From Acidimicrobiia bacterium (GTDB taxonomy: Bacteria > Actinomycetota > Acidimicrobiia > IMCC26256 > PALSA-555): DNA of 64,000 nucleotides. Positions 4,867 to 52,319 of this stretch are shown piece by piece (positions within the stretch are counted from its first letter, which is position 1; each line of letters opens with the position of its first letter). The notes under the pieces were generated by a model. It saw only the letters and a list, made by a program, of their open reading frames with translations, ran no database searches and was not told where the DNA came from. The position numbers and the translations under genes are program-made. Where the stretch lies: assembly GCA_035948415.1 (NCBI GenBank), contig DASZJD010000080.1, positions 2,306 to 66,305 on the forward strand. Direction: 5' to 3'.

Positions 4867-4941
4867 TGGAGGCGGCGGTGGGAATTGAACCCACGTCCAG
4901 GGTTTTGCAGACCCTTGCCTGGGCCACTCGGCTACGCCGCC
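4867..4941 (-). tRNA. tRNA-Cys (anticodon GCA), CCA encoded
   Basis: Hand-folded cloverleaf from the reverse complement GGCGGCGTAGCCGAGTGGCCCAGGCAAGGGTCTGCAAAACCCTGGACGTGGGTTCAATTCCCACCGCCGCCTCCA. It has a 7-bp acceptor stem, a 5-bp anticodon stem with loop CTGCAAA (anticodon GCA), a 5-bp T stem with loop TTCAATT, and a 3' CCA. Confidence 0.9.
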
Positions 4942-10446: not shown

Positions 10447-11364
10447 ATGGGCGCCTTCGACGGGAAGGTTGCGGTCGTCACCGGGGCGGGGCGCGGCATC
10501 GGCCGGGCCGAGGCGCTGCTCCTCGCCGCCGAGGGCGCCGCGGTGGTGGTGAACGACCTGGGCGGCGAGCGCAGCGGGGAGGGCGCCGACCAGCGACCGG
10601 CCCAGCTCGTCGTCGACGAGATCGTCGCCAACGGGGGCCGGGCCGCGCCGAACTACGACGACATCTCGAGCTGGGACGGCGGCGCCGCGCTGGTCGAGCA
10701 GGCCGTCGACGGCTTCGGCGGCCTCGACGTCGTCGTCAACAACGCCGGGATCCTCCGGGACAAGATGAGCTTCAACATGTCCGAGGAGGAGTGGGACGCG
10801 GTGATCCGCGTCCACCTCAAGGGCCACTTCGTGCCCAGCCGCCACGCCGCCGCGTACTGGCGGTCCAAGAGCAAGGAGACCGGCGAGCCCGTCGGCGCCG
10901 CCATCGTCAACACCGCCTCCGAATCGGGCCTGTACGGCAACGCCGGGCAGCTGAACTACGCCGCCGCGAAGGCCGGCATCGCGGCGATGACGATCGTGCT
11001 CGCCCGCGAGCTCGACCGGTTCGGGGTCCGGGTGAACGCCATCGCCCCGGTGGCGCGCACGCGTCTCACCGAGGACCTGGCCGGCGGCGCGTTCGAGGCC
11101 AAGGAGGGCGGCTTCGACGCCTTCGCGCCGGAGAACGCGGCCGCCGGCGCGGTCTGGCTCGCCTCCCCGATGGCGGACGGCATCACCGGCCAGGTGCTGA
11201 AGATCCAGGGGGGGCTGGCCCAGATCGTGCGGGGCTGGCGCCCGATCACCGAGGTCCGCGACGACAAGCCGTGGACCCTCGCCGGCCTCGCGGCCAGCCG
11301 CGACGCCCTCTTCGCCCGGTCCGACCCGGGCCTGCCGCCGTTCTTCCCGCCGGTCGAGGGCTGA
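10447..11364 (+). CDS. short-chain dehydrogenase/reductase (3-hydroxyacyl-CoA dehydrogenase-type SDR with C-terminal extension)
   Basis: Internal ATG 10447 ('MGAFDGKVAVVTGAGRGIGRA' = TGxxxGxG) and the 'NYAAAKAG' YxxxK motif. The upstream 44 codons of ORF 10315.. are Arg/Pro-rich. Confidence 0.85.
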   Translation: MGAFDGKVAVVTGAGRGIGRAEALLLAAEGAAVVVNDLGGERSGEGADQRPAQLVVDEIVANGGRAAPNYDDISSWDGGAALVEQAVDGFGGLDVVVNNAGILRDKMSFNMSEEEWDAVIRVHLKGHFVPSRHAAAYWRSKSKETGEPVGAAIVNTASESGLYGNAGQLNYAAAKAGIAAMTIVLARELDRFGVRVNAIAPVARTRLTEDLAGGAFEAKEGGFDAFAPENAAAGAVWLASPMADGITGQVLKIQGGLAQIVRGWRPITEVRDDKPWTLAGLAASRDALFARSDPGLPPFFPPVEG

Positions 11365-37139: not shown

Positions 37140-38237
37140 GTGGGCGAAGCGGTTCGCGGTGTCATCGCCTCGGCGCCCGGCGAGCCGGTGACGGTCGAGA
37201 CCATCGTGGTCCCGGACCCAGGCCCCGGTGAGGCGCGGGTGCGGGTGCAGGCGTGCGGCGTCTGCCACACCGACCTCCACTACCGCCAGGGCGCGATCGG
37301 TGACGACTTCCCGTACCTGCTCGGGCACGAGGCCGCAGGAACCGTCGAGGTCGTGGGCGAAGGCGTCACCGACGTCGCACCGGGCGATTTCGTCGTCCTG
37401 AACTGGCGGGCCGTCTGCGGCCAGTGTCGAGCCTGTCGTCGCGGGCGTCCGTGGCACTGCTTCGGCTCGCGCAACGCCGAGCAGCAGACGACGCTCGCAG
37501 ACGGAGCCCCGCTCTCCCCCGCCCTCGGCATCGGCGCGTTCGCCGACAAGGTGCTCGTCGCCGCGGGCCAGGCGACGAAGGTCGACCCGGCCGCACGCCC
37601 CGAAGCCGCGGGTCTGGTCGGCTGCGGCGTCATGGCCGGATTCGGGGCGGCCGTCAACACCGGTGCCGTGACACGCGGCGACAGCGTCGCGGTGTTCGGG
37701 TGCGGTGGGGTCGGCGACGCCGCGATCGCCGGCGCTCGGTTGGTCGGCGCGGGGATGATCATCGCCGTCGACACCGACGCCAGGAAGCTCGACCAGGCGC
37801 AGGCGTTTGGCGCGACCCACACCATCGACTCGTCCCGCGTCGATCCCGTCGAGCGCATCCGCTCGCTCACCGACGGGAACGGGGTCGACGTCAGCATCGA
37901 GGCGGTCGGCCATCCCGACGTGCTCCGTCAGGCCTTCTACGCCCGGGACTTGGCCGGCACGCTCGTCCAGGTCGGTGTACCCGCGCCATCGATGCCGCTG
38001 CCCGACATCCCGATGATCGACTTCTTCGGCCGAGGCGGCGTGCTCAAGCCGTCGTGGTACGGCGACTGCCTGCCGAGCCGCGACTTCCCGCTGCTGATCG
38101 ATCTCTACCTCCAAGGCCGCTTCGACCTGGATCGGTTCGTGTCAGAGACCATTCCCCTCGAAGGAATCGAGGAGGCCTTCGCCAAGATGCGCCGCGGCGA
38201 GGTCCTGCGGTCGGTCGTCGTCCTCGACGCGCCGTGA
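37140..38237 (+). CDS. class III Zn-dependent alcohol dehydrogenase, S-(hydroxymethyl)mycothiol/glutathione dehydrogenase-like
   Basis: '[10 protein letters not shown]', 'GHEAAGTVE', '[15 protein letters not shown]' (structural Zn) and 'GCGGVG'. Confidence 0.8.
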
Positions 38238-38353
38238 GCGCCGCGTTCGGCGAGGCCGGACCCGATCGTTCGGTTCGTGATGGCGAAGCGTCGAAACGAG
38301 GGACGAGCGCGTCTGCCTCGAGCGGTCGGCGGACCCCCGCAGTAGCCTCGGGC

Positions 38354-39184
38354 GTGCCCGCTCCCACTCGCCGTCGCGTGACCTCGGTTCGGGTGCGCGC
38401 CGTCGACGGCACCGTGGTGGCGGAGCGCCCGGACCGGCTCGTCACCGAGGAGCCGCTGGAGATCCGTGTCCACGGCCCGGGGCAAGCGCCGCAGCCGCTC
38501 GCGGTCACGATGCGGACGCCGGGCGATGACTTCGAGCTCGCCGTCGGCTTCCTCATCACCGAGCAACTGGCGACGCCGGGCGACGTTGCATCCGTCACCT
38601 ACTGCGTCGGCAACGGCGGCGCGCCCGAGTACAACCTCGTGAACGTCGGGCTGACGCACCCGGTCTCCGTGCACGGTCGGACGTTCCCGGTCAACGCCAG
38701 CTGCGGCCTCTGCGGCGCGACGACCATCGACGACGCGCTCCGCGACACCTCCCCGGTCGGTCCGGGCCCGATCGTCTCGCGGTCGGTCCTCGTAACGCTG
38801 CCGGATCGGCTCCGGGATCGCCAGGCCGTGTTCGCGGCCACGGGCGGACTGCACGCCGCCGGGCTCTTCACGGCTCGCGGCGACGTCATCGTGCTCCGAG
38901 AGGATGTGGGTCGACACAACGCCCTCGACAAGGTCGTCGGTCACCTGGCCCTGCACGGCGACCTGCCGGCACGCGACACGATCGTGGCGGTGTCGGGACG
39001 CCTGAGCTATGAGATCGTGCAGAAGTCCGCCGTCGCGGGGATCTCGGTCCTCTGTGCCGTGTCGGCCCCCTCGAGCCTGGCCGTCGACGCGGCCCGACGC
39101 GTCGATCAGACCTTGGTGGGCTTCCTGCGGGGAGACCGGTTCAACGTCTACACGGGCTCCGAGCGCGTCGACCTGGACCGCTGA
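38354..39184 (+). CDS. fdhD: formate dehydrogenase accessory sulfurtransferase FdhD
   Basis: GTG 38354 within ORF 37424..39184. 'EEPLEIRV', 'NASCGLCG' and 'RHNALDKVVG' are FdhD motifs. Confidence 0.85.
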   Translation: MPAPTRRRVTSVRVRAVDGTVVAERPDRLVTEEPLEIRVHGPGQAPQPLAVTMRTPGDDFELAVGFLITEQLATPGDVASVTYCVGNGGAPEYNLVNVGLTHPVSVHGRTFPVNASCGLCGATTIDDALRDTSPVGPGPIVSRSVLVTLPDRLRDRQAVFAATGGLHAAGLFTARGDVIVLREDVGRHNALDKVVGHLALHGDLPARDTIVAVSGRLSYEIVQKSAVAGISVLCAVSAPSSLAVDAARRVDQTLVGFLRGDRFNVYTGSERVDLDR

Positions 39185-41425
39185 GTGGCCTGGCCAGGAT
39201 CGGCGAGGGTCCGGAGCCCCCATCGGACACGATCCGATCTCTGGGTCGGTTTCCGCCCGTATGGCCTGGGGGAGACCAAACCCAACCACTACGCGGAGAT
39301 CCTGCGCACCATCTGGACCAACCGCGACAACCTGCGGTACGCGTGGCGGATCCTGCGCCGAGGCGTGTGCGACGGCTGCGCGCTGGGGGTCGCCGGGTTC
39401 CACGACTGGACGCTCGAGGGCGTGCACCTGTGCACGACACGCCTGAACCTGCTGCGGGTCAACACGATGGGAGCGCTGGACCCCGCGAGGCTCGCCGACG
39501 TGGCCAGCCTGCGCGACGAGGCTGGTCCCGTGCTCCGAGGACTCGGGCGCCTCGCCCATCCGATGGTGCGCCGCCGGGGTGATCGCGGCTTCGCCCGGAT
39601 CTCCTGGGACGAGGCCCTGGATCTCCTCGCCGGGCGGATCCGAGCCTCGACGCCCGATCGGCTCGCCCTGTACCTGACGGCGCGAGGGCTCACGAACGAG
39701 ACGTATTACGTCGCCCAGAAGGTCATGCGGTTCCTCGGCACCAACAACATCGACAACGCGGCCCGACTGTGCCACGCGCCGTCGACGCTGGCGCTCAAGC
39801 GCTCCATCGGCGTGGGCGCGACGACCTGCTCGTACACCGACGTCATCGAGTCCGATCTCATCGTGCTGTTCGGTGCCAACGTCGCCAACGCCCAGCCCGT
39901 GTTCATGAAGTACCTGTACCTGGCCCGCAAGCGCGGCGCCCAGGTGATCGTCGTGAATCCGCTCCGCGAGCCGGGCCTAGACCGCTACTGGGTGCCCAGC
40001 AGCGTCGAGAGCGCCCTCTTCGGCACCCGGATGACCGACGAGTTTGTGCCCGTGCATGTCGGCGGGGACGTGGCGTTCCTGAACGGCGTCCTCAAGGTGC
40101 TCGTCGCCGAGGGCGGAATCGACCGTGGCTTCGTCGACGAGCACACGACCGGCTTCGACGCCGTGGTCGCCGAGGTGGATCGTGAGTCCTTCGACGAGCT
40201 CGAGACCCGCTCTGGGGTGTCCCGAGCCGCGATGGAAGCGTTCGCCCGCCGGTACGCGTCCGTTCGATCGGCGGTCCTGGTCTGGTCCATGGGCATCACG
40301 CAGCACTGCGCCGGGGTCGACAACGTGGCCGCGATCGTCAATCTCGCCCTCGCGCGCGGCAACGTCGGGCGCCGCGGCGCCGGCCTCATGCCCATCCGCG
40401 GCCACTCCGGCGTGCAGGGCGGCGCCGAGATGGGGGCGTACGCCACCGCGCTCCCCGGGGGGGCGCCCGTTGACCCCACCAGCGCGGCCGCCCTGAGCGA
40501 GCGCTACGGCTTTCGCGTTCCGTCCGAGCCCGGGCTCACCGCCGAGGCCATGCTCGAAGCCGCCGAAGGCGGGGGTCTCGACGTGCTCTGGACCAGCGGC
40601 GGCAACTTCCTCGAGGTGCTGCCCGACCCCAACCGGGTCGAGCGCGCCCTCGGCCGTGTGCCCCTCCGGGTCCATCAGGACATCGTCCTCTCGAGCCAGA
40701 TGCTCGTCGACGGCGAAGCCGTCCTGCTGCTGCCCGTCGCGACCCGTTACGAGCAGCGCGGAGGTGGCACCGAGACGACGACGGAGCGTCGCATCGTGTT
40801 CAGCCCCGAGATCGCCGGGCCCCGGATCGGTGAGGCGCGCAGCGAGTGGGAGGTCTTCGTCGAGATGGGCCGCCGCGTCGATCCCGAGCGCGCAGAGCTC
40901 GTTCGGTTCGCGTCGGGCGACGCCATCCGAGCGGAGATCGCCAGCGTCGTGCCCACCTACGCCGGCGTCGAGCGGCTCCGCCGCACCGGGGATTCGATCC
41001 AGTGGGGCGGGGCACGCCTCTGCGAGGACGGTCTGTTCCCGACCCCGGACGGTCGCGCCCGCTTCACGCCGGTGGTCCCGGCGTCAGCGAGCCCCGACGA
41101 CGGCCGCCTGCGTCTCGCGACTCGCCGCGGCAAGCAGTTCAACACGATGGTGATGGCGGAGCGCGATCCCCTGACTGGTGCCCGACGCGACGCGGTGTTC
41201 CTCGCTCGTGCCGACGCGTCGCGCCTCGGCGTCGGTGACGGCGACGCCGTCGTGGTGCGCTCGCCCCACGGAGAGCTGCGTGCCCGCGTCCACGTCTCCG
41301 ACGTCAGGCCTGGCAACGCGCAGCTGTTCTTCCCTGAGGCCAACGTGCTCTTGCCGATGGGGCGGCGCGGCGAGTCCGGAATCCCCGACTACACGGATCG
41401 GGTCGAGATCGTCGCCGCGAGCTGA
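39185..41425 (+). CDS. FdhF/YdeP-family molybdopterin oxidoreductase (single-subunit formate-dehydrogenase-like)
   Basis: 'GVCDGCALGVAGFHDWTLEGVHLCTTRLNLL' N-terminal region and 'NIDNAARLCHAPS' active-site segment (Cys, codon TGC). 746 aa, starting directly after the fdhD stop. Confidence 0.85.
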   Translation: MAWPGSARVRSPHRTRSDLWVGFRPYGLGETKPNHYAEILRTIWTNRDNLRYAWRILRRGVCDGCALGVAGFHDWTLEGVHLCTTRLNLLRVNTMGALDPARLADVASLRDEAGPVLRGLGRLAHPMVRRRGDRGFARISWDEALDLLAGRIRASTPDRLALYLTARGLTNETYYVAQKVMRFLGTNNIDNAARLCHAPSTLALKRSIGVGATTCSYTDVIESDLIVLFGANVANAQPVFMKYLYLARKRGAQVIVVNPLREPGLDRYWVPSSVESALFGTRMTDEFVPVHVGGDVAFLNGVLKVLVAEGGIDRGFVDEHTTGFDAVVAEVDRESFDELETRSGVSRAAMEAFARRYASVRSAVLVWSMGITQHCAGVDNVAAIVNLALARGNVGRRGAGLMPIRGHSGVQGGAEMGAYATALPGGAPVDPTSAAALSERYGFRVPSEPGLTAEAMLEAAEGGGLDVLWTSGGNFLEVLPDPNRVERALGRVPLRVHQDIVLSSQMLVDGEAVLLLPVATRYEQRGGGTETTTERRIVFSPEIAGPRIGEARSEWEVFVEMGRRVDPERAELVRFASGDAIRAEIASVVPTYAGVERLRRTGDSIQWGGARLCEDGLFPTPDGRARFTPVVPASASPDDGRLRLATRRGKQFNTMVMAERDPLTGARRDAVFLARADASRLGVGDGDAVVVRSPHGELRARVHVSDVRPGNAQLFFPEANVLLPMGRRGESGIPDYTDRVEIVAAS

Positions 41426-41586: not shown

Positions 41587-42438
41587 TCAGCGAGAGGCTC
41601 GAACGATCCACGCCGCGGCGCCGAGGCAGACACCCTCGGGGGTCTGGTGGCCGGCGAGCGCGTCCCGAACCGCGTCGGTGGCGCGGGCTTCTGCGTCCGC
41701 CGCAGCGTCGGCGAAGATCGCTCGCGCCATGCCGGTCCCCCGCAGGAACTCCAGCGTCTCCTCGAGGCTGCCGCCGCCGCCCAGCAGCATCGGGGCCTCG
41801 ACCGGCCCGACGTCGACATCTCGAAACCCGGCGGTTCTCAGCACCTCGGCGGTGCGATCGGGGTCGGCGAGCGCGAAGGGCCCGGGCGCGCCGGGGGGAC
41901 CGAGGTCAGGCAGCGGGATCTGGGTGGCGGCGGCCATGCCCGGCACCAGCACCCACTCGTTCTGCGGCAGGCCCTGCCAGCACACGAACACGAGGCGCCC
42001 GCCCGGCTCAGCCGCTCCGGCCAGATTGGCGAACGCGGCGACCGGATCGTCGAAGAACATGACCCCGAACCGGCTCATCACGACATCGCGGCTCCCGCGG
42101 CCAACGTCCGCGACTTGCGCGTCGGCGACCTCGAACCGGACGTTCTGAATCGCCTCGTCGCTCGCCCTGCTGCGCGCACGGTCGATCATCGGACGCGAGA
42201 CGTCCAGGCCGAGCGCGTCACCGCCCCTGGCCGCCGCAGCGGCGGCGAACGTCGTCGTTCCGGTCCCACATCCCACGTCCAGTACCCGATCCCCCGGACC
42301 GATTGCCGCCACCGTGAGCAAGTGATCGGTGAACGGACGCAGCATCGCGTCGTAGCGGGCCTGATGGTCGATCCAGTGGCGCGCCTCGTCCGAGTTCCAA
42401 TACTCGATCTGCTCCGCGTTCGCGCCGTTGCTCGTCAC
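41587..42438 (-). CDS. class I SAM-dependent methyltransferase
   Basis: 'RVLDVGCGTGTTT' motif I. 283 aa. Confidence 0.8.
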   Translation of the reverse strand: MTSNGANAEQIEYWNSDEARHWIDHQARYDAMLRPFTDHLLTVAAIGPGDRVLDVGCGTGTTTFAAAAAARGGDALGLDVSRPMIDRARSRASDEAIQNVRFEVADAQVADVGRGSRDVVMSRFGVMFFDDPVAAFANLAGAAEPGGRLVFVCWQGLPQNEWVLVPGMAAATQIPLPDLGPPGAPGPFALADPDRTAEVLRTAGFRDVDVGPVEAPMLLGGGGSLEETLEFLRGTGMARAIFADAAADAEARATDAVRDALAGHQTPEGVCLGAAAWIVRASR

Positions 42439-43454
42439 GGCTCGTCTTCCTCGAGCGACGTCGCGACCGCCGGCGACGCCGCTCCCAGCTGGGCGCGCCA
42501 GGGCGCCACGTCGAGGTTCGGGTAGCGCGCCGCGGTCTCGTCGAGCAACGCCGCGTCCCAGATCGGGTGCCCGGGTGGGGGGAACCCGAAGAGTTCGAGC
42601 TGGCGCGGCGTCGACCCCTCAACGAACTGAGTCCACGCTGGAAACGTCGCTCGCGACTGCACCGAGGTGTACCCGATCCAGTCCTGGCCCGCGACCTTGA
42701 AGCTGACGTTGAGGAGGAAGCGTGCGCCTCCGGGCGCCGTGAGGTTCACGGCGCGATGGAAGACGTCGGGGCGGTAGGCGAGCAAGGACCCGCGCATCCC
42801 GGCTGCCGGCCGCTCCCGGGAATACAGCTCCGGGTCATTGGCCGGCATGATCAACGGCGCGGTCGGCGAACGACCTGGTGAGTCGCGAAGCGACACGAGA
42901 TGTGTCGGAGCGGTTCCAGCGTCCACGTCCGAGAGGTAGAGGAACGACTCGACGTGCAACCACGGGGTTTCAGCGCGAGGCGGCAGCCACGAGTGGTTTC
43001 GGTCGGTGTGCATCGGCTGCTCGTAATTCGTCTCACCCGTGTACTTGGCCGACACGCCCACCTGGTATAGGCGCAGGTCGTCCGTCGCCAGGAGCCGCTC
43101 GGCAAGGTCGACGATCGCCGGGTGGACGCACAACCGGTTGAGCCGGCCCGACCCCGAGAACGGGAACTCCGCTCGCCACGTGTGCTGCTCGGGCCGGAAC
43201 CCGGGTCCGTCGGGCGGCCACGTGAACGAGTGACGCGGCGGGGCTGGCTCGCCGAGCCACTTCTTGGTCTCCCCGGCTGGATCGGCGTGGTAGTCCGCCG
43301 GAGTGGGGAAGAGGTCCGGCAGGTCCTCAGCCGCGGCGTCGATCTCGTCGGTGCCGATCAACCCGTCGACCAGCACCCACCCGTGCTCGCGCCACGCGTC
43401 GACCTCGTCGTCACGGGCGCGTCGCCCGGCGTGCGTCGCGAGGTCGCGGGCCAT
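42435..43454 (-). CDS. phytanoyl-CoA dioxygenase (PhyH)-like Fe(II)/2-oxoglutarate oxygenase
   Basis: 339 aa. The N-terminal 'WREHGWVLVDGLI' and the 'MHTDRNHSW' / 'FHRAVN' spacing resemble the PhyH family. 4-nt overlap with the methyltransferase. Tentative. Confidence 0.55.
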   Translation of the reverse strand: MARDLATHAGRRARDDEVDAWREHGWVLVDGLIGTDEIDAAAEDLPDLFPTPADYHADPAGETKKWLGEPAPPRHSFTWPPDGPGFRPEQHTWRAEFPFSGSGRLNRLCVHPAIVDLAERLLATDDLRLYQVGVSAKYTGETNYEQPMHTDRNHSWLPPRAETPWLHVESFLYLSDVDAGTAPTHLVSLRDSPGRSPTAPLIMPANDPELYSRERPAAGMRGSLLAYRPDVFHRAVNLTAPGGARFLLNVSFKVAGQDWIGYTSVQSRATFPAWTQFVEGSTPRQLELFGFPPPGHPIWDAALLDETAARYPNLDVAPWRAQLGAASPAVATSLEEDEP

Positions 43455-43564
43455 GCCAAAGGACTAGCGACCCGTCGCCGGCTGGCGCAAACTCGAGCCC
43501 GGCCGAGCGTGTCGAGCCCGGCGTCCAACGCCGCCTCGGTGCGCCGTCTCGTCGGACTCGGTGC

Positions 43565-43960
43565 TCAGGGCGATGCTGCGACCCGGGCGGCCGCGTCGGC
43601 ACGCTGGTCGAAGCCGCGGATGTCCACGATGCGCCCGGAACGGATCCTGACGACCTGCCAACGATCCACCTCGCCACCCCCTGCCTGCGCCGCGGGGTTG
43701 CCGCTGACCCGAAGACCGATGAGGAGCTGGTCGCCGTGCACCGTCATCTCGGTGACCCGGGCCCGGACGCCGGCGGTGCGTCCGCGTTGGTACCAGGCCA
43801 GCACCTGGTCCCGGTTCGTGCAGCCCGGCGCGGGGTCGTCCGGGGCGCCCCAGCGCACGCTTGGGTCGAGCAGGTCGCTGACTGCGGCCAACTCCGCTGA
43901 CTCCAGCGCGGCGCGGACGCGTTCGACGATCTCCCGTCCCACCGCCTGCCGTTCATCCAT
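43565..43960 (-). CDS. SnoaL-like NTF2-fold protein
   Basis: ATG 43960 ('MDERQAVGREIVERVRAALESAELAAVSDLLDPSVRWG...RIRSGRIVDIRGF'). Confidence 0.55.
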   Translation of the reverse strand: MDERQAVGREIVERVRAALESAELAAVSDLLDPSVRWGAPDDPAPGCTNRDQVLAWYQRGRTAGVRARVTEMTVHGDQLLIGLRVSGNPAAQAGGGEVDRWQVVRIRSGRIVDIRGFDQRADAAARVAASP

Positions 43961-44369
43961 CGAGCCGCCTCCGCCGCTTCGCCTTCGAGATGGTGTCAGA
44001 CACCGAGAGGGAGTGCCGGTTCCGGCGCCTGTCGGCACGACCTCGACGGTCGAACGAATCTCGGCTCGCTGGGAGGTCCTCCTCGGGCGCTCGACACGAT
44101 CGAGACGGGTCAGCACACTGTCTCGCCATGTCATCCCTGACCGCCGGGCGAGGCGCGGGCCGGACTCGCGATGGCGGAGGCCGGCCCGAACGCGGGCGGT
44201 GCGACGGCGCGCACCCTAGCCTGGAGGGGCCGGGCCCTACCTGGGAGGGAACCACGGAAACGACGACCGCCCCCTTCGTCAACTGGCAGTCCTGCTCGAG
44301 TGTCTTTGAGGAAGCGTCGTACAGGACACGTGACCTGGCCGGGAATCGGCCGGTCCCCTGACACAGCAC

Positions 44370-44729
44370 ATGGAGATTTTCAAGGAGTTCTCCTTCGAGG
44401 CCGCCCACCGTCTCCCGCACGTACCGGTCGGGCACAAGTGTTCTCGCCTCCACGGCCATTCGTTCCGCGTGAGCGTGCACATCGAGGGGCCGACCGGCGC
44501 GGAGACGGGGTGGGTACGGGACTTCGCGGACCTGAGCTGCGCGATGGAGCCCGTCCTGAGGCGGCTCGACCACTACTACCTGAACGACATCGAGGGACTC
44601 GACAACCCCACCAGCGAGACGCTGGCTCGTTGGATCTGGGAGCGGTTGCTGCCCGCGCTGCCCGGACTGTCGCAAGTCGTGGTGCGCGAGACCTGCACGT
44701 CGGGATGCGTGTACCGAGGCGAGCCGTGA
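44370..44729 (+). CDS. queD: 6-carboxy-5,6,7,8-tetrahydropterin synthase
   Basis: 119 aa. '[26 protein letters not shown]' and '[18 protein letters not shown]...[12 protein letters not shown]' are near-canonical QueD. Confidence 0.9.
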
Positions 44730-45412
44730 GTGCGCCCCGATCGGTGGATTCGGGCTCGGCGAACCGCGTCGCGGTCCTCTCGAGCGGCGGCCTCGACAGC
44801 GCGGTGCTCATCGCGGAGTTCCTGAAGCTGGGTCACGTCGTCCAACCCATCTACGTGCGGTTCGGCTTGGCCTGGGAGAAGGTCGAGGAGGAGCAGCTCC
44901 GGCGCTTCCTCGGCACGCTCCCTGGGCACCGAGCTCATCCCGTGCTCACGCTCGACTTCCCGATCACCGATGTCTACGGCTCACACTGGAGCGTGTCCGG
45001 CGATGACGTGCCGGATGCGACGTCCACCGACGACGCCGTGTACCTACCCGGCAGGAACCTGCTGCTGCTCGCCAAGTCGAGCATCTGGTGCGCGCTCCAC
45101 GACGTTCGCAACCTTGCGCTCGGGACGCTGAAGGGCAACCCGTTCGCCGACAGCAGCCGTGCCTTTTTCAGGATCGTCGAGTCGGCGGTTCATACCGCGC
45201 TGAACTTCGACCTCGAGGTGATCACCCCGTTCGCCGGGCTCACCAAGTCCGAGGTCCTCGAACGGGGGCGCGGTCTCGAGCTTCACCACACCTTCTCGTG
45301 CATCGACCCGCAGGGCGACCAGCACTGTGGGCGCTGCAACAAGTGCGCCGAGCGCCGGCGCGCGTTCGCAACGTTGGGGATCAACGACGGCACCCGGTAC
45401 GCGGCGCTCTGA
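44726..45412 (+). CDS. QueC-family PP-loop ATPase (divergent 7-cyano-7-deazaguanine synthase-like)
   Basis: GTGA overlap with queD. '[13 protein letters not shown]' PP-loop and the C-terminal 4-Cys cluster '[21 protein letters not shown]'. The central region reads '[16 protein letters not shown]' where, as I recall it, canonical QueC has 'CETDFSGYPDC'. Confidence 0.75.
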
Positions 45413-45430
45413 GACCGGCCGGAGGGCCTC

Positions 45431-46342
45431 GTGACCGGGGTTTACGTGGCCCCGATCTCGTTCGGGTTGGGCGACCTCGTGGTGTCGTTGCCGGTCATCC
45501 AGGCCCTCGTCGCCGAAGGCCGTGCGGGGGGTCACGAGACGTGGGTGGTGGCGCGCTCGGTCGGACAGGCCCGGCTCGCCGAGCGCATCGAGGGCATCGC
45601 GGGGACGGTGTCCGAGGACGAATTCGATCCGACCCAGTGCCCAGGTCGCTTCATCGATCTTCGCGACCATCCCCTCCAGCGTGACTACTGGTGGGGCTCA
45701 CCGGAGTTCGAGGACGCGGTCGGGCCGTTGTCGATCAACGAGATCCTCGGCCGCATCAGCGCCGACTTCGAGATCAGCGCGGACTTCGGGCGCCCGGCTC
45801 CCTTGCTCTCGCACCCTCGACCAGAGGCCAGCGAGCAGGTCCTCTTCGTCGCCGAGACCGATGGGGCGACCAAGCGATGGGCCACCGAGCGTTGGGCGAC
45901 ATTGGCGGAAAGGATCGAAGCGCTTGGCGTCGAGGTCCGTCTCGTCACGCCAACGGCTGCGGACGGCGACATGCACGGAGCCGGCATTGAGCAGCTACGA
46001 GCCCCGAGCCCCGGCGACGCCGTGGATCTCCTCGGTGCCTGTCGCGCGGTGGTCGGCGTCGACACCGGCCTGACGCATATCGCGGTGCAACAGCGGACAC
46101 CGACGGTCACGATCTGTCGACAGCCGCCGACCTTCTTTCGGCCGTGGCCCCACTGTCGCGCCGTCGTCGGTCAGCGCTGCGACGACGTGTGCGCATCCCT
46201 CAACCGTGACCAGGCGTATAACGCACGGGTGAGTCTGCGTGGATTTCAATGGCGGCCGCGCGTCTGCCCGGTTGGAGCGCGCTGTCTGGATCCGATCCAC
46301 CCCGACCGCGTGATGGACGCCCTCCGGGAGCTCGAGTGGTAG
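45431..46342 (+). CDS. glycosyltransferase family 9-like (heptosyltransferase-type GT-B)
   Basis: The N-terminal 'ISFGLGDLVVSLPVIQAL' and C-terminal 'AVVGVDTGLTHIAVQQRTPTVTI' resemble GT9 motifs. It starts 19 nt after the queC-like stop. Confidence 0.6.
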   Translation: MTGVYVAPISFGLGDLVVSLPVIQALVAEGRAGGHETWVVARSVGQARLAERIEGIAGTVSEDEFDPTQCPGRFIDLRDHPLQRDYWWGSPEFEDAVGPLSINEILGRISADFEISADFGRPAPLLSHPRPEASEQVLFVAETDGATKRWATERWATLAERIEALGVEVRLVTPTAADGDMHGAGIEQLRAPSPGDAVDLLGACRAVVGVDTGLTHIAVQQRTPTVTICRQPPTFFRPWPHCRAVVGQRCDDVCASLNRDQAYNARVSLRGFQWRPRVCPVGARCLDPIHPDRVMDALRELEW

Positions 46343-46374
46343 GCGACCTCGAACCCGGCCAACGCGGCCGGCAG

Positions 46375-47475
46375 ATGTGGTCAGCGTCTGATCGGCAAGC
46401 ACCGAACAGCGTGCCCGTGGACTCGTGCGCGCAACACGGCGTCAGGAACTCGCAGCCCGAAGGGATCGGGCGTGTGGTTGCCATCGGCGAAATCTGTGCG
46501 TGGAACAACCTGGGCCGCAACGTGGTCTTCGCGTCCAGCGACCTCCGGCCCGTGGCGATCTTCGGGGAGACGCGTTTCCCCGAAGATGATGAGCTGTCGC
46601 AATACGACCTCGATGTCCACGCCATCGTTGATCTCCCGGGCATCGACGTCGTCGTGGTTCTCAACCACCTGGGTCTGATCCGGGCCTTCCGACGATCAGA
46701 CATTCGCGCTGGTCCGGCGCGGCGCCTCCATCCACTGTGGACGCGAACATTTGCCGCGGACGTGGAGCGCCTCGTGGCCGTCGGAGATCGACTCGTGGGG
46801 TCCCGGCCACGCGGGGCGGACGCGGGCGGATTGCTGGTCTCCGAACCCATCGGGGGGATGCCGAGCCGCTCACCGGTGGACGCCGACACCCAGCTCGAGA
46901 CTTGGGGAGCGGTCACCGCACTCGTGGGGCTGCCCGCCGGTGGCGACGACCGTGTAGCCGTCGGAGGGGAGGGGCGAGTCGCGCTCGTCTCAGCTCGGGA
47001 CGGCCGCGTCGACGACGTTCGCTGGGAGGTCGAAGTTGGGTTTCAGCCCGCGGGGCTGCTGTGGGACGGCACGCTCGTGTGGGCGGCGGGTCACGAGTCG
47101 GACACCGCGGCGATCGGCGACTACGAGTGGGAGAAGCTGCGCGGCGGCGGATTCGCGGGCCTGGACCCCGTCGATGGGGACATGGTCGTTCACGGCCACT
47201 TCTCCGACGACCTGGGATGGGGGAACGGGGGCATGGCCGTCGCGATCGCTGGCGGCGCGGTGTGCGGGATCGGCCAGACCGGCGAATTGCACCTGTTCCG
47301 CGCCCGGGACGGGGAGCCGCTCGGACACACCGCTCCCTTCGCTCACCGCTCCCTCGGGATCGCGCACACGGCCGCCGTCGGTGAGCACGTCCTCTACGGC
47401 TTCAACCGAGGCGGCTACCGCCTCCGCCGCGTCGCAGTTTCGAGCATCGCGCGTCTTGCCGGTGCCCGGGGGTGA
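46375..47475 (+). CDS. hypothetical protein, possibly beta-propeller (PQQ-like repeat) fold
   Basis: ATG 46375. Recurrent 'G.V.LV.ARDG..' and 'GELHLFRARDGEPL' strand-turn motifs. No catalytic motif recognised. Confidence 0.4.
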   Translation: MWSASDRQAPNSVPVDSCAQHGVRNSQPEGIGRVVAIGEICAWNNLGRNVVFASSDLRPVAIFGETRFPEDDELSQYDLDVHAIVDLPGIDVVVVLNHLGLIRAFRRSDIRAGPARRLHPLWTRTFAADVERLVAVGDRLVGSRPRGADAGGLLVSEPIGGMPSRSPVDADTQLETWGAVTALVGLPAGGDDRVAVGGEGRVALVSARDGRVDDVRWEVEVGFQPAGLLWDGTLVWAAGHESDTAAIGDYEWEKLRGGGFAGLDPVDGDMVVHGHFSDDLGWGNGGMAVAIAGGAVCGIGQTGELHLFRARDGEPLGHTAPFAHRSLGIAHTAAVGEHVLYGFNRGGYRLRRVAVSSIARLAGARG

Positions 47476-47498
47476 CGAGGCGACCCCAGGGTCGGTGG

Positions 47499-48050
47499 CT
47501 ACGGCGCGTACAGCTTCAGCTGCTGGTAAGGCATGAACCGTCGGCTTCCCTTGCGCACGTCCTGGAGGAGGCCGTCAAGCGCCTCCTCAAGCGCAGCGAG
47601 ATGGCGACGAAGGACCGGCAGGCGCCCTGCGAGCGAGTTGGTGTCCGAACCGCGGGAGGCGACCGCGCGTTCGGTGTGATGGATGCGGATCACCAGCACG
47701 GAGAGACGATCGAAGACCATCGCCGGGCTCTCGGTGGCGAGCGGGGCCGCGGCGACCTGGGAAACGGCGGCATCGATTCCAGCGTCGATCGCTTCGATCA
47801 GGCGGTGTCGCGTCGCGTTGAGCCGGTCGATCGCTCGCTTCGCGCTGGCAACGGTCGCGTCGTCCGCGCCGACCGTGCGGCCATCGTCCTCGAATTGCCA
47901 CTGAGCGATGTTCGTGCTGTGCAGCTCCCCGAGCAGCCCGGCGGCGTGCCCACCGCCCGCCGGCTGACCCTCGCCCTCACGAAGGATTCGGCGGAACTCC
48001 GCCGACACGCTGCTTGCGGACAAGCGACTCGGGTCAGAGAGCGGATCCAT
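47499..48050 (-). CDS. DUF4254-like protein
   Basis: ATG 48050. 'LHSTNIAQWQFEDDGR...AKRAIDRLNATRHRLIEAID' matches the signature I recall for DUF4254. From memory only. Confidence 0.45.
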   Translation of the reverse strand: MDPLSDPSRLSASSVSAEFRRILREGEGQPAGGGHAAGLLGELHSTNIAQWQFEDDGRTVGADDATVASAKRAIDRLNATRHRLIEAIDAGIDAAVSQVAAAPLATESPAMVFDRLSVLVIRIHHTERAVASRGSDTNSLAGRLPVLRRHLAALEEALDGLLQDVRKGSRRFMPYQQLKLYAP

Positions 48051-48066
48051 GAGCAACCGGCGCGGT

Positions 48067-48441
48067 CTACAGGCGAGGTGGGACGGCCGGCTCGGTGCAG
48101 AGCGGCCGTCGCTCATGTGCGGGGAACCGGTCAGCGAGTTCAAGCACTCGACCAACTCCGCGGTCGTCGATCGTGGAGGGAACCGGTGAGAGGTCGAAAT
48201 CCAGCGCGAATCCTGCTGCGCGGACGACCCGGTCGAGGGTCGCGACCGTCGGAACTTTGACGCCCGCCTCGTACGCCGACAGCGTCGAGTGAGAGGTACC
48301 CGCGAGCCGGCCGAGCTGCCGGAGGGAGAGGCCGGCCCGGCCCCGAGCCAGACGAATCACGCCGGCGGCATCCACATCCTGATGGTATCCGATCGGATAC
48401 CAGAGGCCCCGCAAGATCGAAAGGTGACCGATTAGTCTCAT
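48067..48441 (-). CDS. XRE-family helix-turn-helix protein
   Basis: 'LARGRAGLSLRQLGRLAGTSHSTLSAYEAG' HTH. It ends 16 nt upstream of the DUF4254-like gene. The start is uncertain. Confidence 0.65.
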   Translation of the reverse strand: MRLIGHLSILRGLWYPIGYHQDVDAAGVIRLARGRAGLSLRQLGRLAGTSHSTLSAYEAGVKVPTVATLDRVVRAAGFALDFDLSPVPSTIDDRGVGRVLELADRFPAHERRPLCTEPAVPPRL

Positions 48442-48491
48442 GTCCCCCGGCCGTCTGTCTCCCCGAAGGTTCACAAGCCCAGGAGGACCAG

Positions 48492-48878
48492 ATGAGTGAC
48501 AAGACCAAGGTCCGGATCACCGACGTGCGCACCGTAGGCGTGCCCGTCACCGACCAGGACCGGGCGGTGGAGTTCTATGTCGGCAAGCTCGGATTCGAGA
48601 TCCGCCTCGACGCCCCGCTTGGCGACGGCGGCCGGTGGATCGAGCTGGCGCCGCCCGGAGCTACGACGACGATCGCCCTCGTCCGTGCGCGCGATGGGAT
48701 ACCTGCGGGCGTCGAGACCGGCATCCGTTTTACGACGGCCGACGCCGACGCCGAGCACGCCGACCTGCAGGCCAGGGGCGTCGACAGCGACGATGTGTTG
48801 CGTTGGCCGGGCGTGCCGGCCATGTTCGCCTTCCGCGACCAGGATGGCAACGGGCTCGAGATCGTTCAGAGTGCCTGA
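48492..48878 (+). CDS. VOC-family (glyoxalase/bleomycin-resistance fold) protein
   Basis: 128 aa with '[20 protein letters not shown]' and '[13 protein letters not shown]'. Confidence 0.8.
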
Positions 48879-50638: not shown

Positions 50639-51316
50639 CTAGGACGGCTTGGCATCGGCATATTCGTCGTGCCAGTTCCACCACTTGTACGGTTCGGTTT
50701 GGGGGTAGTCCTCGGGCGAGTCCTCCCAGTCCTCCTGGCGTCCGAGCGCCGTAATGTCGAGGTAGCTCCAAGTGCTCCCCATCGCTTCGTCGCCGCGGTT
50801 GTTGATGAAGTAAGTCCGGAACACGCGGTCGCCGTCGCGGATGAACGCGTTCGTGCCGTGCCATTCGTCCACGCCGAAGTCGGTGGCGAAGTCGTCCGTC
50901 ATCGTGTACCAGGGCATCGTCCAGCTCATCCGCGCCTTAACGCGCTCGATGTCTGCCTGCGCCGCGGGCGAGACGAAGACGAGAGTTGTGTCGCGGGCGT
51001 TCAAATGGGCGACATGGGCGACCTGGTCGGCAACGAGGGAGCAGCCGATGCAGGCATGGTCGGGCCAGCCGTACACATCGGGTTCGAAGAAGGCGCGGTA
51101 GACGATCAGCTGACGGCGGCCTTCGAACAGGTCGAGGAGGCTCGCTCTGCCCTTGGGTCCGTCGAACTCGTACTCCTTCTCCACAGCCAGCCACGGCATC
51201 CGCCGACGCTCGGCGGCGAGCGCGTCACGGGCGCGGGTCAACTCCTTCTCCTTCACGAGCAATTGCCGGCGCGCCGCCTCCCACCCGTCGGGCGACACGA
51301 TCGGGGGTGTGTTCAT
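50639..51316 (-). CDS. DUF899 thioredoxin-like protein
   Basis: 'WEAARRQLLVKEKELTRARDALAAERRRMPW' and 'CIGCS'. Confidence 0.8.
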   Translation of the reverse strand: MNTPPIVSPDGWEAARRQLLVKEKELTRARDALAAERRRMPWLAVEKEYEFDGPKGRASLLDLFEGRRQLIVYRAFFEPDVYGWPDHACIGCSLVADQVAHVAHLNARDTTLVFVSPAAQADIERVKARMSWTMPWYTMTDDFATDFGVDEWHGTNAFIRDGDRVFRTYFINNRGDEAMGSTWSYLDITALGRQEDWEDSPEDYPQTEPYKWWNWHDEYADAKPS

Positions 51317-51602: not shown

Positions 51603-52319
51603 CTAGCTGGCCTCGTACTGGTCATGCCGATGAAACCACGACAGGTCGCCCTCGTTGCGGCCGAGCGGCGCCCGATCGAGCCATTGCCACATCGTCCACA
51701 GCACGTCGAGGCCGCGGGCATACGCGGAGTAGGTGTGGAAGACGTCGTCGCCGTCACGCGCGAACGCGCTCATGCCGGGTTGCTCGCCCGACCAGTCGCG
51801 CCAGGCGACGTTCTCCTCCTCGAGCTGCGCCTGGTCCTTGTAGTTGTACTCAACCGGTGCCACCGCGGGATCGATCGTCACATGGAAGTCGTAGTTGAAG
51901 CTGCTCCCGAACGACGAGATCCAACGGAAGTTCCATCCCATGCGTCGCTTGTACGCGACGAGGTTGGCGAGCGGCGCGCGCGACACCACGGCGAACGCCA
52001 CATCGTGGTGCTCGAGGTGCGGGACGCTGCCGGCGAATCCGTCCGCGACCGCCGAGCAGCTCGGACAGCCTTCGTCCCAGTCCGGCCCCAACATGAAGTG
52101 ATAGACGAGCATCTGCGAACGCCCCCCGAACAGATCGCGCAGCGACGCGTCGCCGTCTTCGGTCGCGAACCGGTAATCCTTCTCAACCGGCACCCAGGGC
52201 AGGTCACGCCGCCGTCGCGCAAGCTCGTCGCTGCGGCGCGTTAATTCCTTCTCAGCTTCGAGCAGCTCGAGGCGAGCTGCAAGCCATTCGTCGCGCGTGC
52301 CGAGTGTGTGGGATGCCAT
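51603..52319 (-). CDS. DUF899 thioredoxin-like protein (paralogue)
   Basis: 'WLAARLELLEAEKELTRRSDELARRRRDLPW' and 'CPSCS'. Confidence 0.8.
   Translation of the reverse strand: MASHTLGTRDEWLAARLELLEAEKELTRRSDELARRRRDLPWVPVEKDYRFATEDGDASLRDLFGGRSQMLVYHFMLGPDWDEGCPSCSAVADGFAGSVPHLEHHDVAFAVVSRAPLANLVAYKRRMGWNFRWISSFGSSFNYDFHVTIDPAVAPVEYNYKDQAQLEEENVAWRDWSGEQPGMSAFARDGDDVFHTYSAYARGLDVLWTMWQWLDRAPLGRNEGDLSWFHRHDQYEAS

Follow-up and report, generated by a model that had tools for sequence, protein, structure and literature searches.

A conserved Acidimicrobiia gene cluster joining queD and a divergent queC-like gene to a GT9/DUF4254 pair

The window analysed here is a stretch of 64,000 nt (positions 2,306 to 66,305 of contig DASZJD010000080.1, assembly GCA_035948415.1) from a metagenome-assembled genome (MAG) of an Acidimicrobiia bacterium. 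It carries a chromosomal, conserved gene cluster built of two convergent operons. One operon holds queD, a gene for a QueC-like PP-loop protein, a gene for a GT9-family glycosyltransferase and a beta-propeller gene; the other, in its usual form, holds a gene for a thioredoxin reductase-like (TrxR-like) flavoprotein and a gene for a DUF4254 protein. In the Acidimicrobiia-type cluster a QueD/QueC-like module is thus combined with a GT9/DUF4254 module, the propeller and the flavoprotein being additions. Full-text literature searches found no paper describing the combination of QueD, QueC-like protein, GT9 and DUF4254, and a 2026 survey covering QueC-family proteins is silent on any branch tied to glycosyltransferases (PMC13329287). 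What is new is a branch of the QueC family in a new, widespread genetic context. We tentatively propose that the product of QueD is activated with ATP by the QueC-like protein, amidated and glycosylated to yield a metabolite outside the queuosine pathway, a reading that we hold to be possible but short of probable.

Conservation of the cluster and a deletion in the window lineage

The QueC-like protein was searched for in one genome per GTDB species and found in at least 572 genomes. Its relatives number in the thousands at 63-79% identity, and across other genomes the identity ranges from 53 to 79%. The best 80 of these at least 572 carriers are nearly all MAGs of Acidimicrobiia/Acidimicrobiales, joined by Solirubrobacterales, Rokubacteria and Gemmataceae. 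Synteny was compared in 81 non-redundant species-level loci, each gene being counted only where the flank allowed the test. On this basis queD lies beside the QueC-like gene in 77 of 80 testable loci, and the cluster includes GT9 in 73 of 75, the propeller in 69 of 71 and DUF4254 in 65 of 71; the TrxR-like gene stands upstream of DUF4254 in 67 of 70. The order QueD–QueC-like–GT9–propeller, converging on DUF4254–TrxR-like, is found in about 65–77 of the 81 loci. The gene adjacency first noticed in the window is therefore conserved in other genomes, and far beyond chance.

Spacing is equally tight along the operon. The stop codon of queD overlaps the start of the QueC-like gene (as GTGA, ATGA or TTGA) in 50 of 77 loci, and the median gaps are 5 nt between the QueC-like and GT9 genes and -4 nt between the GT9 and propeller genes. 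The genes flanking the cluster vary between loci, and therefore the six genes travel as a unit. All-versus-all clustering of the open reading frames (ORFs) of the loci gave no conserved neighbours beyond these six. An F420-type luciferase-like oxidoreductase (LLM) and a flavin reductase were considered as core members and rejected, as they occur in only 13/81 and 6/81 loci. No relative of the QueC-like protein was found on 2.9 million viral contigs. The ratio of nonsynonymous to synonymous substitution (dN/dS) between the cluster genes that remain intact in the window and those of its closest relative, locus L086, is 0.25-0.33, which indicates purifying selection.

The association is also specific when it is approached from the other module. 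A profile search for DUF4254 gave 1,370 clusters at 50% identity, and in 80 other DUF4254 loci (GC 37-70%) none had QueD, the QueC-like protein, the propeller or the TrxR-like flavoprotein within 8 kb. The QueD/QueC-like pair joins the GT9/DUF4254 pair only in this clade.

Some variants of the locus may be recorded. The 3′ ends of the convergent propeller and DUF4254 genes overlap in many loci, for instance at 10653-10663 of locus L002, with a median stop-to-stop distance of about -41 nt. One Rokubacteria MAG carries two copies of the cluster (L017 and L019); both lack DUF4254 and have the TrxR-like gene directly after the propeller. Read-through ORFs joining QueC-like to GT9, or TrxR-like to DUF4254, occur in some long-read MAGs or fragments and were not counted as fusions, being possible frameshift errors.

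The window itself departs from the common arrangement at its second operon: no TrxR-like gene was found anywhere in the 64 kb, and a gene for an XRE-family helix-turn-helix (HTH) regulator stands upstream of DUF4254. The closest relative, L086, shares 85-87% nucleotide identity and has the order HTH, 188-aa gene, TrxR-like gene (Pyr_redox_2), DUF4254. By blastn, window positions 48406-48097 match L086 2118-2439 and window positions 48062-44938 match L086 4118-7247. From these positions, about 1.68 kb (L086 2440-4117), holding the 188-aa and TrxR-like genes, is missing from the window. The identical junction is present in five independent assemblies, so that the deletion is a real state of this lineage and not a misassembly. 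The XRE protein of the window is 79% identical to the HTH protein of L086, whose gene lies 1.7 kb upstream of DUF4254 there, and an XRE homologue is present in only 1 of the 81 other loci. The XRE gene adjoins DUF4254 because the deletion placed it there, and a role as regulator of the cluster is ruled out by the mapped deletion. The sequence-only reading had taken XRE and DUF4254 as a pair; the family of the regulator and the 16-nt spacing hold, while the pairing is a by-product of the deletion and the conserved partner of DUF4254 is the TrxR-like gene. In L086 the HTH gene and the 188-aa gene overlap at the end of the former (2463 vs 2466). Together they look like an XRE-led two-gene module, possibly of the toxin-antitoxin kind, which is now broken in the window lineage.

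The encoded proteins

QueD is near-canonical, as had been supposed from its sequence. It matches PF01242 (PTPS) with 126 bits and passes the equivalog model TIGR03367 (105.7 vs a cut-off of 89.25). Comparison with solved structures gave 192 bits for PDB 2OBA and 181 for E. coli QueD (4NTM), and the C-x3-HGH motif is present as CSRLHGH.

The QueC-like protein (about 228 aa) belongs to Pfam PF06508 with 89.7 bits against a threshold of 22. It falls below the QueC equivalog TIGR00364 (65.4 vs 150.3 bits) and PRK11106 (36.2 vs 378). With a profile of 27 members of this family, the solved structures scored 60.3 bits for Cap9 (9NTO), 56.1 for Pectobacterium QueC and 44.7 for Bacillus QueC. By these profile scores the protein is distant from both Cap9 and QueC, with Cap9 marginally closer and the margins small. 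The QatC models give weak partial matches, 26.5 bits in NCBIfam (cut-off 280) and 21.7 bits in PADLOC.

The signature of canonical QueC has been defined experimentally as YxQxHxxE, VPxRN, YPDC and Y189; in the E. coli enzyme Y189A is inactive and Y131F retains partial activity (PMC13329287). Canonical QueC (PF06508 cluster 1; PDB 2PG3 and 3BL5) and the present protein share the fold, the size, the PP-loop, the RN loop, the aromatic-x-Asp motif, the zinc site and the adjacency to queD. The PP-loop SGGLDS (canonical SGGxDS) and the zinc site C192-x8-C201-x2-C204-x2-C207 are kept and are invariant in the 27 members, in agreement with what had been read from the single sequence, and the RN loop is LPGRN. 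The two differ at the remaining motifs, where Y-x-Q-x-H-x-x-E is F-G-L-A-W-E-x-V-E, YPDC is FADS and Y189 is Ile. In the profile alignment Y35-x-Q37-x-H39 pairs with F46-G-L48-A-W50, and Y131-P-D133-C134 pairs with F140-A-D142-S143, with the aromatic residue and the Asp retained. The canonical residues replaced are accordingly Q37, H39, C134 and Y189. A loss of Y35 suggested by a phmmer alignment was discarded, since the profile alignment pairs Y35 with F46. The central segment had been taken to differ from that of QueC; the Cys is indeed lost, but the divergence is smaller than believed. With the low equivalog score, the profile ranking and the lost signature residues, the protein does not group with orthodox QueC. 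The two also differ in linkage. Canonical QueC is linked to queE as well as to queD, whereas no radical S-adenosylmethionine (QueE) protein was seen beside queD in the annotated neighbourhoods here.

Cap9 of type IV CBASS (cyclic-oligonucleotide-based anti-phage signalling system) and QatC of QatABCD are QueC-family enzymes that ligate 7-carboxy-7-deazaguanine (CDG) to a protein N-terminus. The QueC-like protein resembles Cap9 in motif spacing (aromatic-x-X-x5-E and aromatic-x-D-[CS]-x3-F) and in all four nucleobase contacts. In the Cap9 crystal structure these contacts are L83, R86, Y115 and D117. They align with L107, R110, F140 and D142, and all four are invariant in the QueC-like family. 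From the conserved and altered positions together, the enzyme presumably still binds and adenylates a 2-amino-4-oxo heterocyclic carboxylate, and its chemistry at the reactive end (use of ammonia, formation of the nitrile) appears to have changed. The public label "7-cyano-7-deazaguanine synthase" on these proteins is probably an over-call.

The glycosyltransferase matches PF01075 with 54.1 bits (threshold 22), the match being confined to the C-terminal half, and DUF4254 matches PF14063 with 106.5 (threshold 27), so that both assignments made from the window pass the Pfam thresholds. The equivalogs for heptosyltransferases I, II and III of lipopolysaccharide (LPS) all failed on the GT9 protein (45.3 vs 185.3, 31.3 vs 134.6 and 12 vs 170.2). 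The host is a monoderm actinobacterium, and actinobacteria lack LPS. The nearest structure is WaaC (E = 1.6e-3). With WaaC and WaaF (GT9; PDB 2GT1 and 1PSW) the protein shares the GT-B fold and the N-terminal G-x-G-D, and its K148 and D211-T-G-L-T-H216 align with WaaC K192 and D261-T-G-L-x-H266, residues that we take to serve the donor site. These conserved motifs suggest an ADP-sugar donor. Besides the equivalog score, it departs from WaaC/WaaF in its distinct N-terminal domain, where the acceptor-domain loop RDH..QRD.WWG is invariant, and in having a cluster of four Cys (C250, C254, C279, C285) in the C-terminal part. Conservation of at least 95% in 70 orthologues covers G12, G14 and D15, K148, D211-H216, R78-G89 and the four Cys. 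The Cys cluster is probably a metal site. Such a cluster is not known from WaaC/WaaF and is reminiscent of the metal finger of protein heptosyltransferases.

The DUF4254 protein is modelled by AlphaFold as a bundle of six helices with a mean predicted local distance difference test (pLDDT) of 88.6. In the other DUF4254 loci the commonest immediate neighbour is GT9 (18 of 92 neighbours), and fusion proteins combine GT9-DUF4254, GT9-APH kinase-DUF4254, DUF4254-GT2 and DUF4254-(P-loop-like)-NTP_transf_2. The GT9 adjacency and the fusions with GT9, GT2, kinase-like and nucleotidyltransferase domains place DUF4254 in the machinery of sugar activation or transfer. An RfaF-linked DUF4254 that pairs with GT9 has been described in Flavobacteria/Bacteroidota (PMC9425974). 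Together with the neighbour count and the fusions, this bears out the link between the two families that the sequence-only reading had named. In Bacteroidota and other phyla the same families are adjacent; here they lie on opposite strands, and DUF4254 is in a predicted operon with the flavoprotein in the other loci. Two proteins of about 600 aa (P0493 and P0531) carry an N-terminal DUF4254 followed by a weak P-loop kinase-like region and NTP_transf_2, an architecture suggestive of nucleotides or nucleotide-sugars as substrates or ligands of DUF4254.

The propeller protein is 366 aa from the ATG at 46375, the start used in the sequence-only reading, or 379 aa from the GTG at 46336, which overlaps the GT9 stop and is the start called in another assembly. 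No match was found in Pfam, NCBIfam or PADLOC, and every one of its 755 homologues is annotated as hypothetical. The AlphaFold model is a confident all-beta propeller (pLDDT 87.3, predicted template modelling score 0.88), as had been supposed from the repeats. Foldseek returned generic BamB/WD40 folds (template modelling score 0.5-0.6), and a specific enzyme match was discarded on that result. Many polar residues are invariant, and this conservation would be consistent with an enzyme or a specific binding protein.

The TrxR-like flavoprotein of the other loci is about 308 aa and matches Pyr_redox_2. It aligns over its full length with thioredoxin reductases and misses the thioredoxin reductase equivalog TIGR01292 (143.5 vs 343). 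The redox CATC is replaced (by VEPR in L002), and CxxC at this site is found in 0 of 62 orthologues. Because the redox CxxC is replaced, the protein is not a disulfide reductase.

A possible pathway and its alternatives

The pathway that we tentatively favour would begin with QueD, which would convert dihydroneopterin triphosphate to 6-carboxy-5,6,7,8-tetrahydropterin (CPH4). The coupled QueC-like enzyme would bind CPH4, or CDG if QueE acts elsewhere, adenylate the carboxylate with ATP and pass it to an amine, giving an amide and not the nitrile of 7-cyano-7-deazaguanine (preQ0). GT9, with DUF4254 as its usual partner, would then add a sugar from an ADP-activated donor, and tailoring or redox steps may fall to the propeller and to the NAD(P)H flavoprotein. 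The product would be a glycosylated pterin- or deazaguanine-carboxamide, possibly cofactor-like. Which substrate, amine acceptor and sugar are used, and in which order the steps run, is our inference. The earlier interpretation, which held plain queuosine biosynthesis to be unlikely and a glycosylated pterin- or deazapurine-derived product conceivable, is supported by the QueC-like score below the QueC equivalog, by the Pfam matches of GT9 and DUF4254 and by the conserved adjacency.

A related type of pathway is known. Clusters of the huimycin/dapiramicin type combine QueD, a QueC homologue and a glycosyltransferase, and attach a sugar to the heterocycle (PMC7439116). The huimycin/toyocamycin clusters contain GTP cyclohydrolase I, QueE and a ToyM-like QueC and belong to strain-specific secondary metabolism, whereas the present cluster lacks folE and queE, uses GT9 and DUF4254, and is conserved class-wide.

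Several observations weigh against the proposed pathway. In Gemmataceae the QueC-like protein (53-55% identity) is encoded beside murB without GT9, propeller or DUF4254 nearby, and one of three loci there (L083) has a PTPS gene 2 kb from it; since the gene occurs without the glycosylation genes, the QueD/QueC-like and GT9/DUF4254 modules can function apart. The flavoprotein gene has been lost from the locus in the window lineage, and therefore either the flavoprotein step is dispensable or the pathway is altered in this lineage. The changes of Y35 and Y131 to Phe are conservative. The substrate could be CDG instead of CPH4, and preQ0 could even remain the product of the enzyme. The DUF4254 model gave no significant fold match in the PDB, and we know of no GT9 glycosyltransferase that acts on a pterin or a deazapurine.

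A narrower form of the proposal is a pterin branch independent of QueE, in which CPH4 is directly activated by a dedicated QueC-family ligase to give a glycosylated pterin-carboxamide; Acidimicrobiia and related bacteria of soil and water would use it as a new cofactor or metabolite. We regard it as doubtful. CPH4 has so far been known only as a precursor of 7-deazapurines. If it is true that the QueD product is used without QueE, this would be a new fate for 6-carboxytetrahydropterin, probably a new class of metabolites, and the pathway would give first biochemical roles to DUF4254 and the propeller family. The branch is large (at least 572 species-level genomes) and resides in abundant, nearly uncultured actinobacteria of soil and freshwater. 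It also provides a concrete context for three uncharacterised families, namely DUF4254, the propeller and the Cys-less TrxR-like flavoprotein.

Alternatively, the cluster may modify a macromolecule. Recent work has shown that enzymes of the QueC family also serve in immunity, where they conjugate nucleobases to proteins, and the QueC-like protein could likewise ligate an activated heterocyclic acid to an amine of a protein, the propeller or another, with GT9/DUF4254 glycosylating the conjugate or the target. Cap9 is the best-scoring solved structure by profile, the F-x-L-x5-E spacing equals the Cap9 variant Y/F-x-Q-x5-E, and Cap9 and QatC show the fold to be capable of taking a protein N-terminus as the nucleophile. 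The propeller, which is specific to the cluster, could serve as substrate or adaptor, and the extra four-Cys cluster of GT9, with its presumed likeness to the metal finger of protein heptosyltransferases, would agree with a protein target. Nevertheless, the cluster proteins compared offer no obvious conserved N-terminus as target: those of the propeller, DUF4254 and GT9 vary in length and sequence, with no conserved Gly/Ala after the Met (two sequences compared for GT9). The target could also be a protein from outside the cluster. Cap9 is truncated (about 185 aa) and QatC is about 400 aa; both are encoded among mobile defence genes and use CDG made by the host, unlinked to queD, whereas queD here is translationally coupled. 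Their partners (CD-NTase, Cap10/TGT, QatA, QatB, QatD) and a TGT-like protein were looked for in the window and in three homologous loci with annotation, and none was found. The chromosomal, syntenic and class-wide distribution, with no viral QueC-like copies, is also unlike that of defence islands. Protein conjugation is therefore considered unlikely.

An ordinary supply of preQ0 for queuosine would require only that the QueC-like protein be a divergent but functional QueC, with QueE encoded elsewhere and the GT9, propeller and DUF4254 genes as vertically inherited bystanders. The NCBI label, the canonical QueD, the queC-queD adjacency typical of true QueC and the retention of the P-loop, RN loop, aromatic-x-Asp motif and zinc site would all be accounted for, as would the Gemmataceae gene that stands apart from the other cluster genes with a PTPS gene 2 kb away. 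However, the equivalog score is less than half of the cut-off, and Q37, H39, C134 and Y189 are replaced, the last at a position where Ala inactivates the E. coli enzyme. Overlaps and 4-nt couplings run through the QueC-like, GT9 and propeller genes, and the six genes stay together in Acidimicrobiia and Solirubrobacterales (without DUF4254 in Rokubacteria) despite differing flanks. As the sequence-only reading had remarked, queE, folE, queF and tgt are absent from the locus; a scan of 10 neighbouring genes turned up none, and Pfam annotation showed none around three homologous loci. We judge this explanation improbable.

The superfamily PF06508 includes sugar amidotransferases, and DUF4254 elsewhere is found with glycosylation functions, as a fusion partner or neighbour of GT9, GT2, GT4, kinase and nucleotidyltransferase. 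A glycoconjugate pathway can thus be envisaged, with WbpG-type amidation of a sugar acid by the PP-loop enzyme, an envelope or protein-linked glycan built by GT9/DUF4254, and a side role for QueD. However, the QueC-like protein keeps the nucleobase-binding residues of QueC/Cap9 and the zinc motif and not the cluster-5 (WbpG) signature, no conserved genes for sugar-nucleotide synthesis, a flippase or a polymerase are nearby, and nothing in this reading accounts for the strict coupling to a canonical QueD, which makes sugar-acid amidation very improbable. The weak partial QatC matches and the XRE gene that adjoins in the window would speak for anti-phage defence based on a QueC-family protein, as in Qat and type IV CBASS, but this is extremely improbable, as the QatC scores lie far under the cut-off, PADLOC gave no further components, the XRE gene came to lie there through the deletion, and the locus is syntenic class-wide at 53-79% identity, without the pattern of a variable island and without QueC-like copies on the viral contigs.

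Layout of the locus and other features of the window

The coordinates of the locus are collected in Table 1. At 44726-44729 the TGA stop of queD (44727-44729) and the GTG that starts the QueC-like gene share nucleotides and read GTGA, the same junction that had been read before. Between the QueC-like stop (45412) and the GT9 start (45431) 18 nt were measured, one less than the 19 nt first given. The convergence of the operon on the opposite-strand gene across 23 nt (47475 vs 47499) agrees with the earlier figure, and 16 nt separate the XRE stop (48067) from the DUF4254 start (48050), which lies downstream of it. NCBI annotates the window proteins as QueD, 7-cyano-7-deazaguanine synthase, GT9 and DUF4254.

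Table 1. Positions of the cluster genes and of the deletion junction in the window.
Feature	Position	Strand	Family, motif or basis
queD, near-canonical CPH4 synthase	44370..44729	+	PF01242, TIGR03367, C-x3-HGH
QueC-like PP-loop ATPase, divergent, putative carboxylate-adenylating amidoligase type	44726..45412	+	PF06508
GT9-family GT-B glycosyltransferase with extra conserved four-Cys cluster	45431..46342	+	PF01075
Beta-propeller protein, cluster-specific, without family assignment	46336..47475 (GTG) or 46375..47475 (ATG)	+	
DUF4254 protein, helical bundle, convergent with propeller gene	47499..48050	-	PF14063
Deletion junction, 34 bp left	48063..48096		blastn vs L086
XRE-family HTH regulator	48067..48441	-	HTH_31 and HTH_3 matches

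Scans with Rfam gave no match at the gathering threshold in the window and none at E <= 1 in 43400-48700, and a riboswitch upstream of queD was discarded on these empty scans. Searches for sigma-70-like promoters and intrinsic terminators found none, and no terminator-like hairpin was found between the convergent propeller and DUF4254 genes. A gene for a precursor peptide was likewise rejected, the gaps being too small (18 nt or overlaps in the operon; about 100 nt upstream of queD in L002).

Other features of the window lie apart from the cluster. Two tandem DUF899 paralogues (predicted dithiol-disulfide oxidoreductase) are encoded on the minus strand at 50639-51316 and 51603-52319, 2.6 kb from the cluster, an adjacency that is not conserved elsewhere. 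A 339-aa protein without a Pfam match is encoded at 42435-43454 (minus strand); it has more than 90% identity in several metagenome contigs, and its gene overlaps the start of a downstream methyltransferase gene by 4 nt. At 37424-41425 (plus strand) an FdhD/NarQ-family domain occupies the C-terminus of a 586-aa stop-to-stop ORF, whose real start is probably later, and is followed by a 746-aa molybdopterin oxidoreductase; as the one directly precedes the other, they form a formate-dehydrogenase-like pair. A single tRNA gene is located at 4870-4941 (minus strand), and the G+C content of the first 5 kb or so is 62-68%, below the 72-79% of the next 25 kb.

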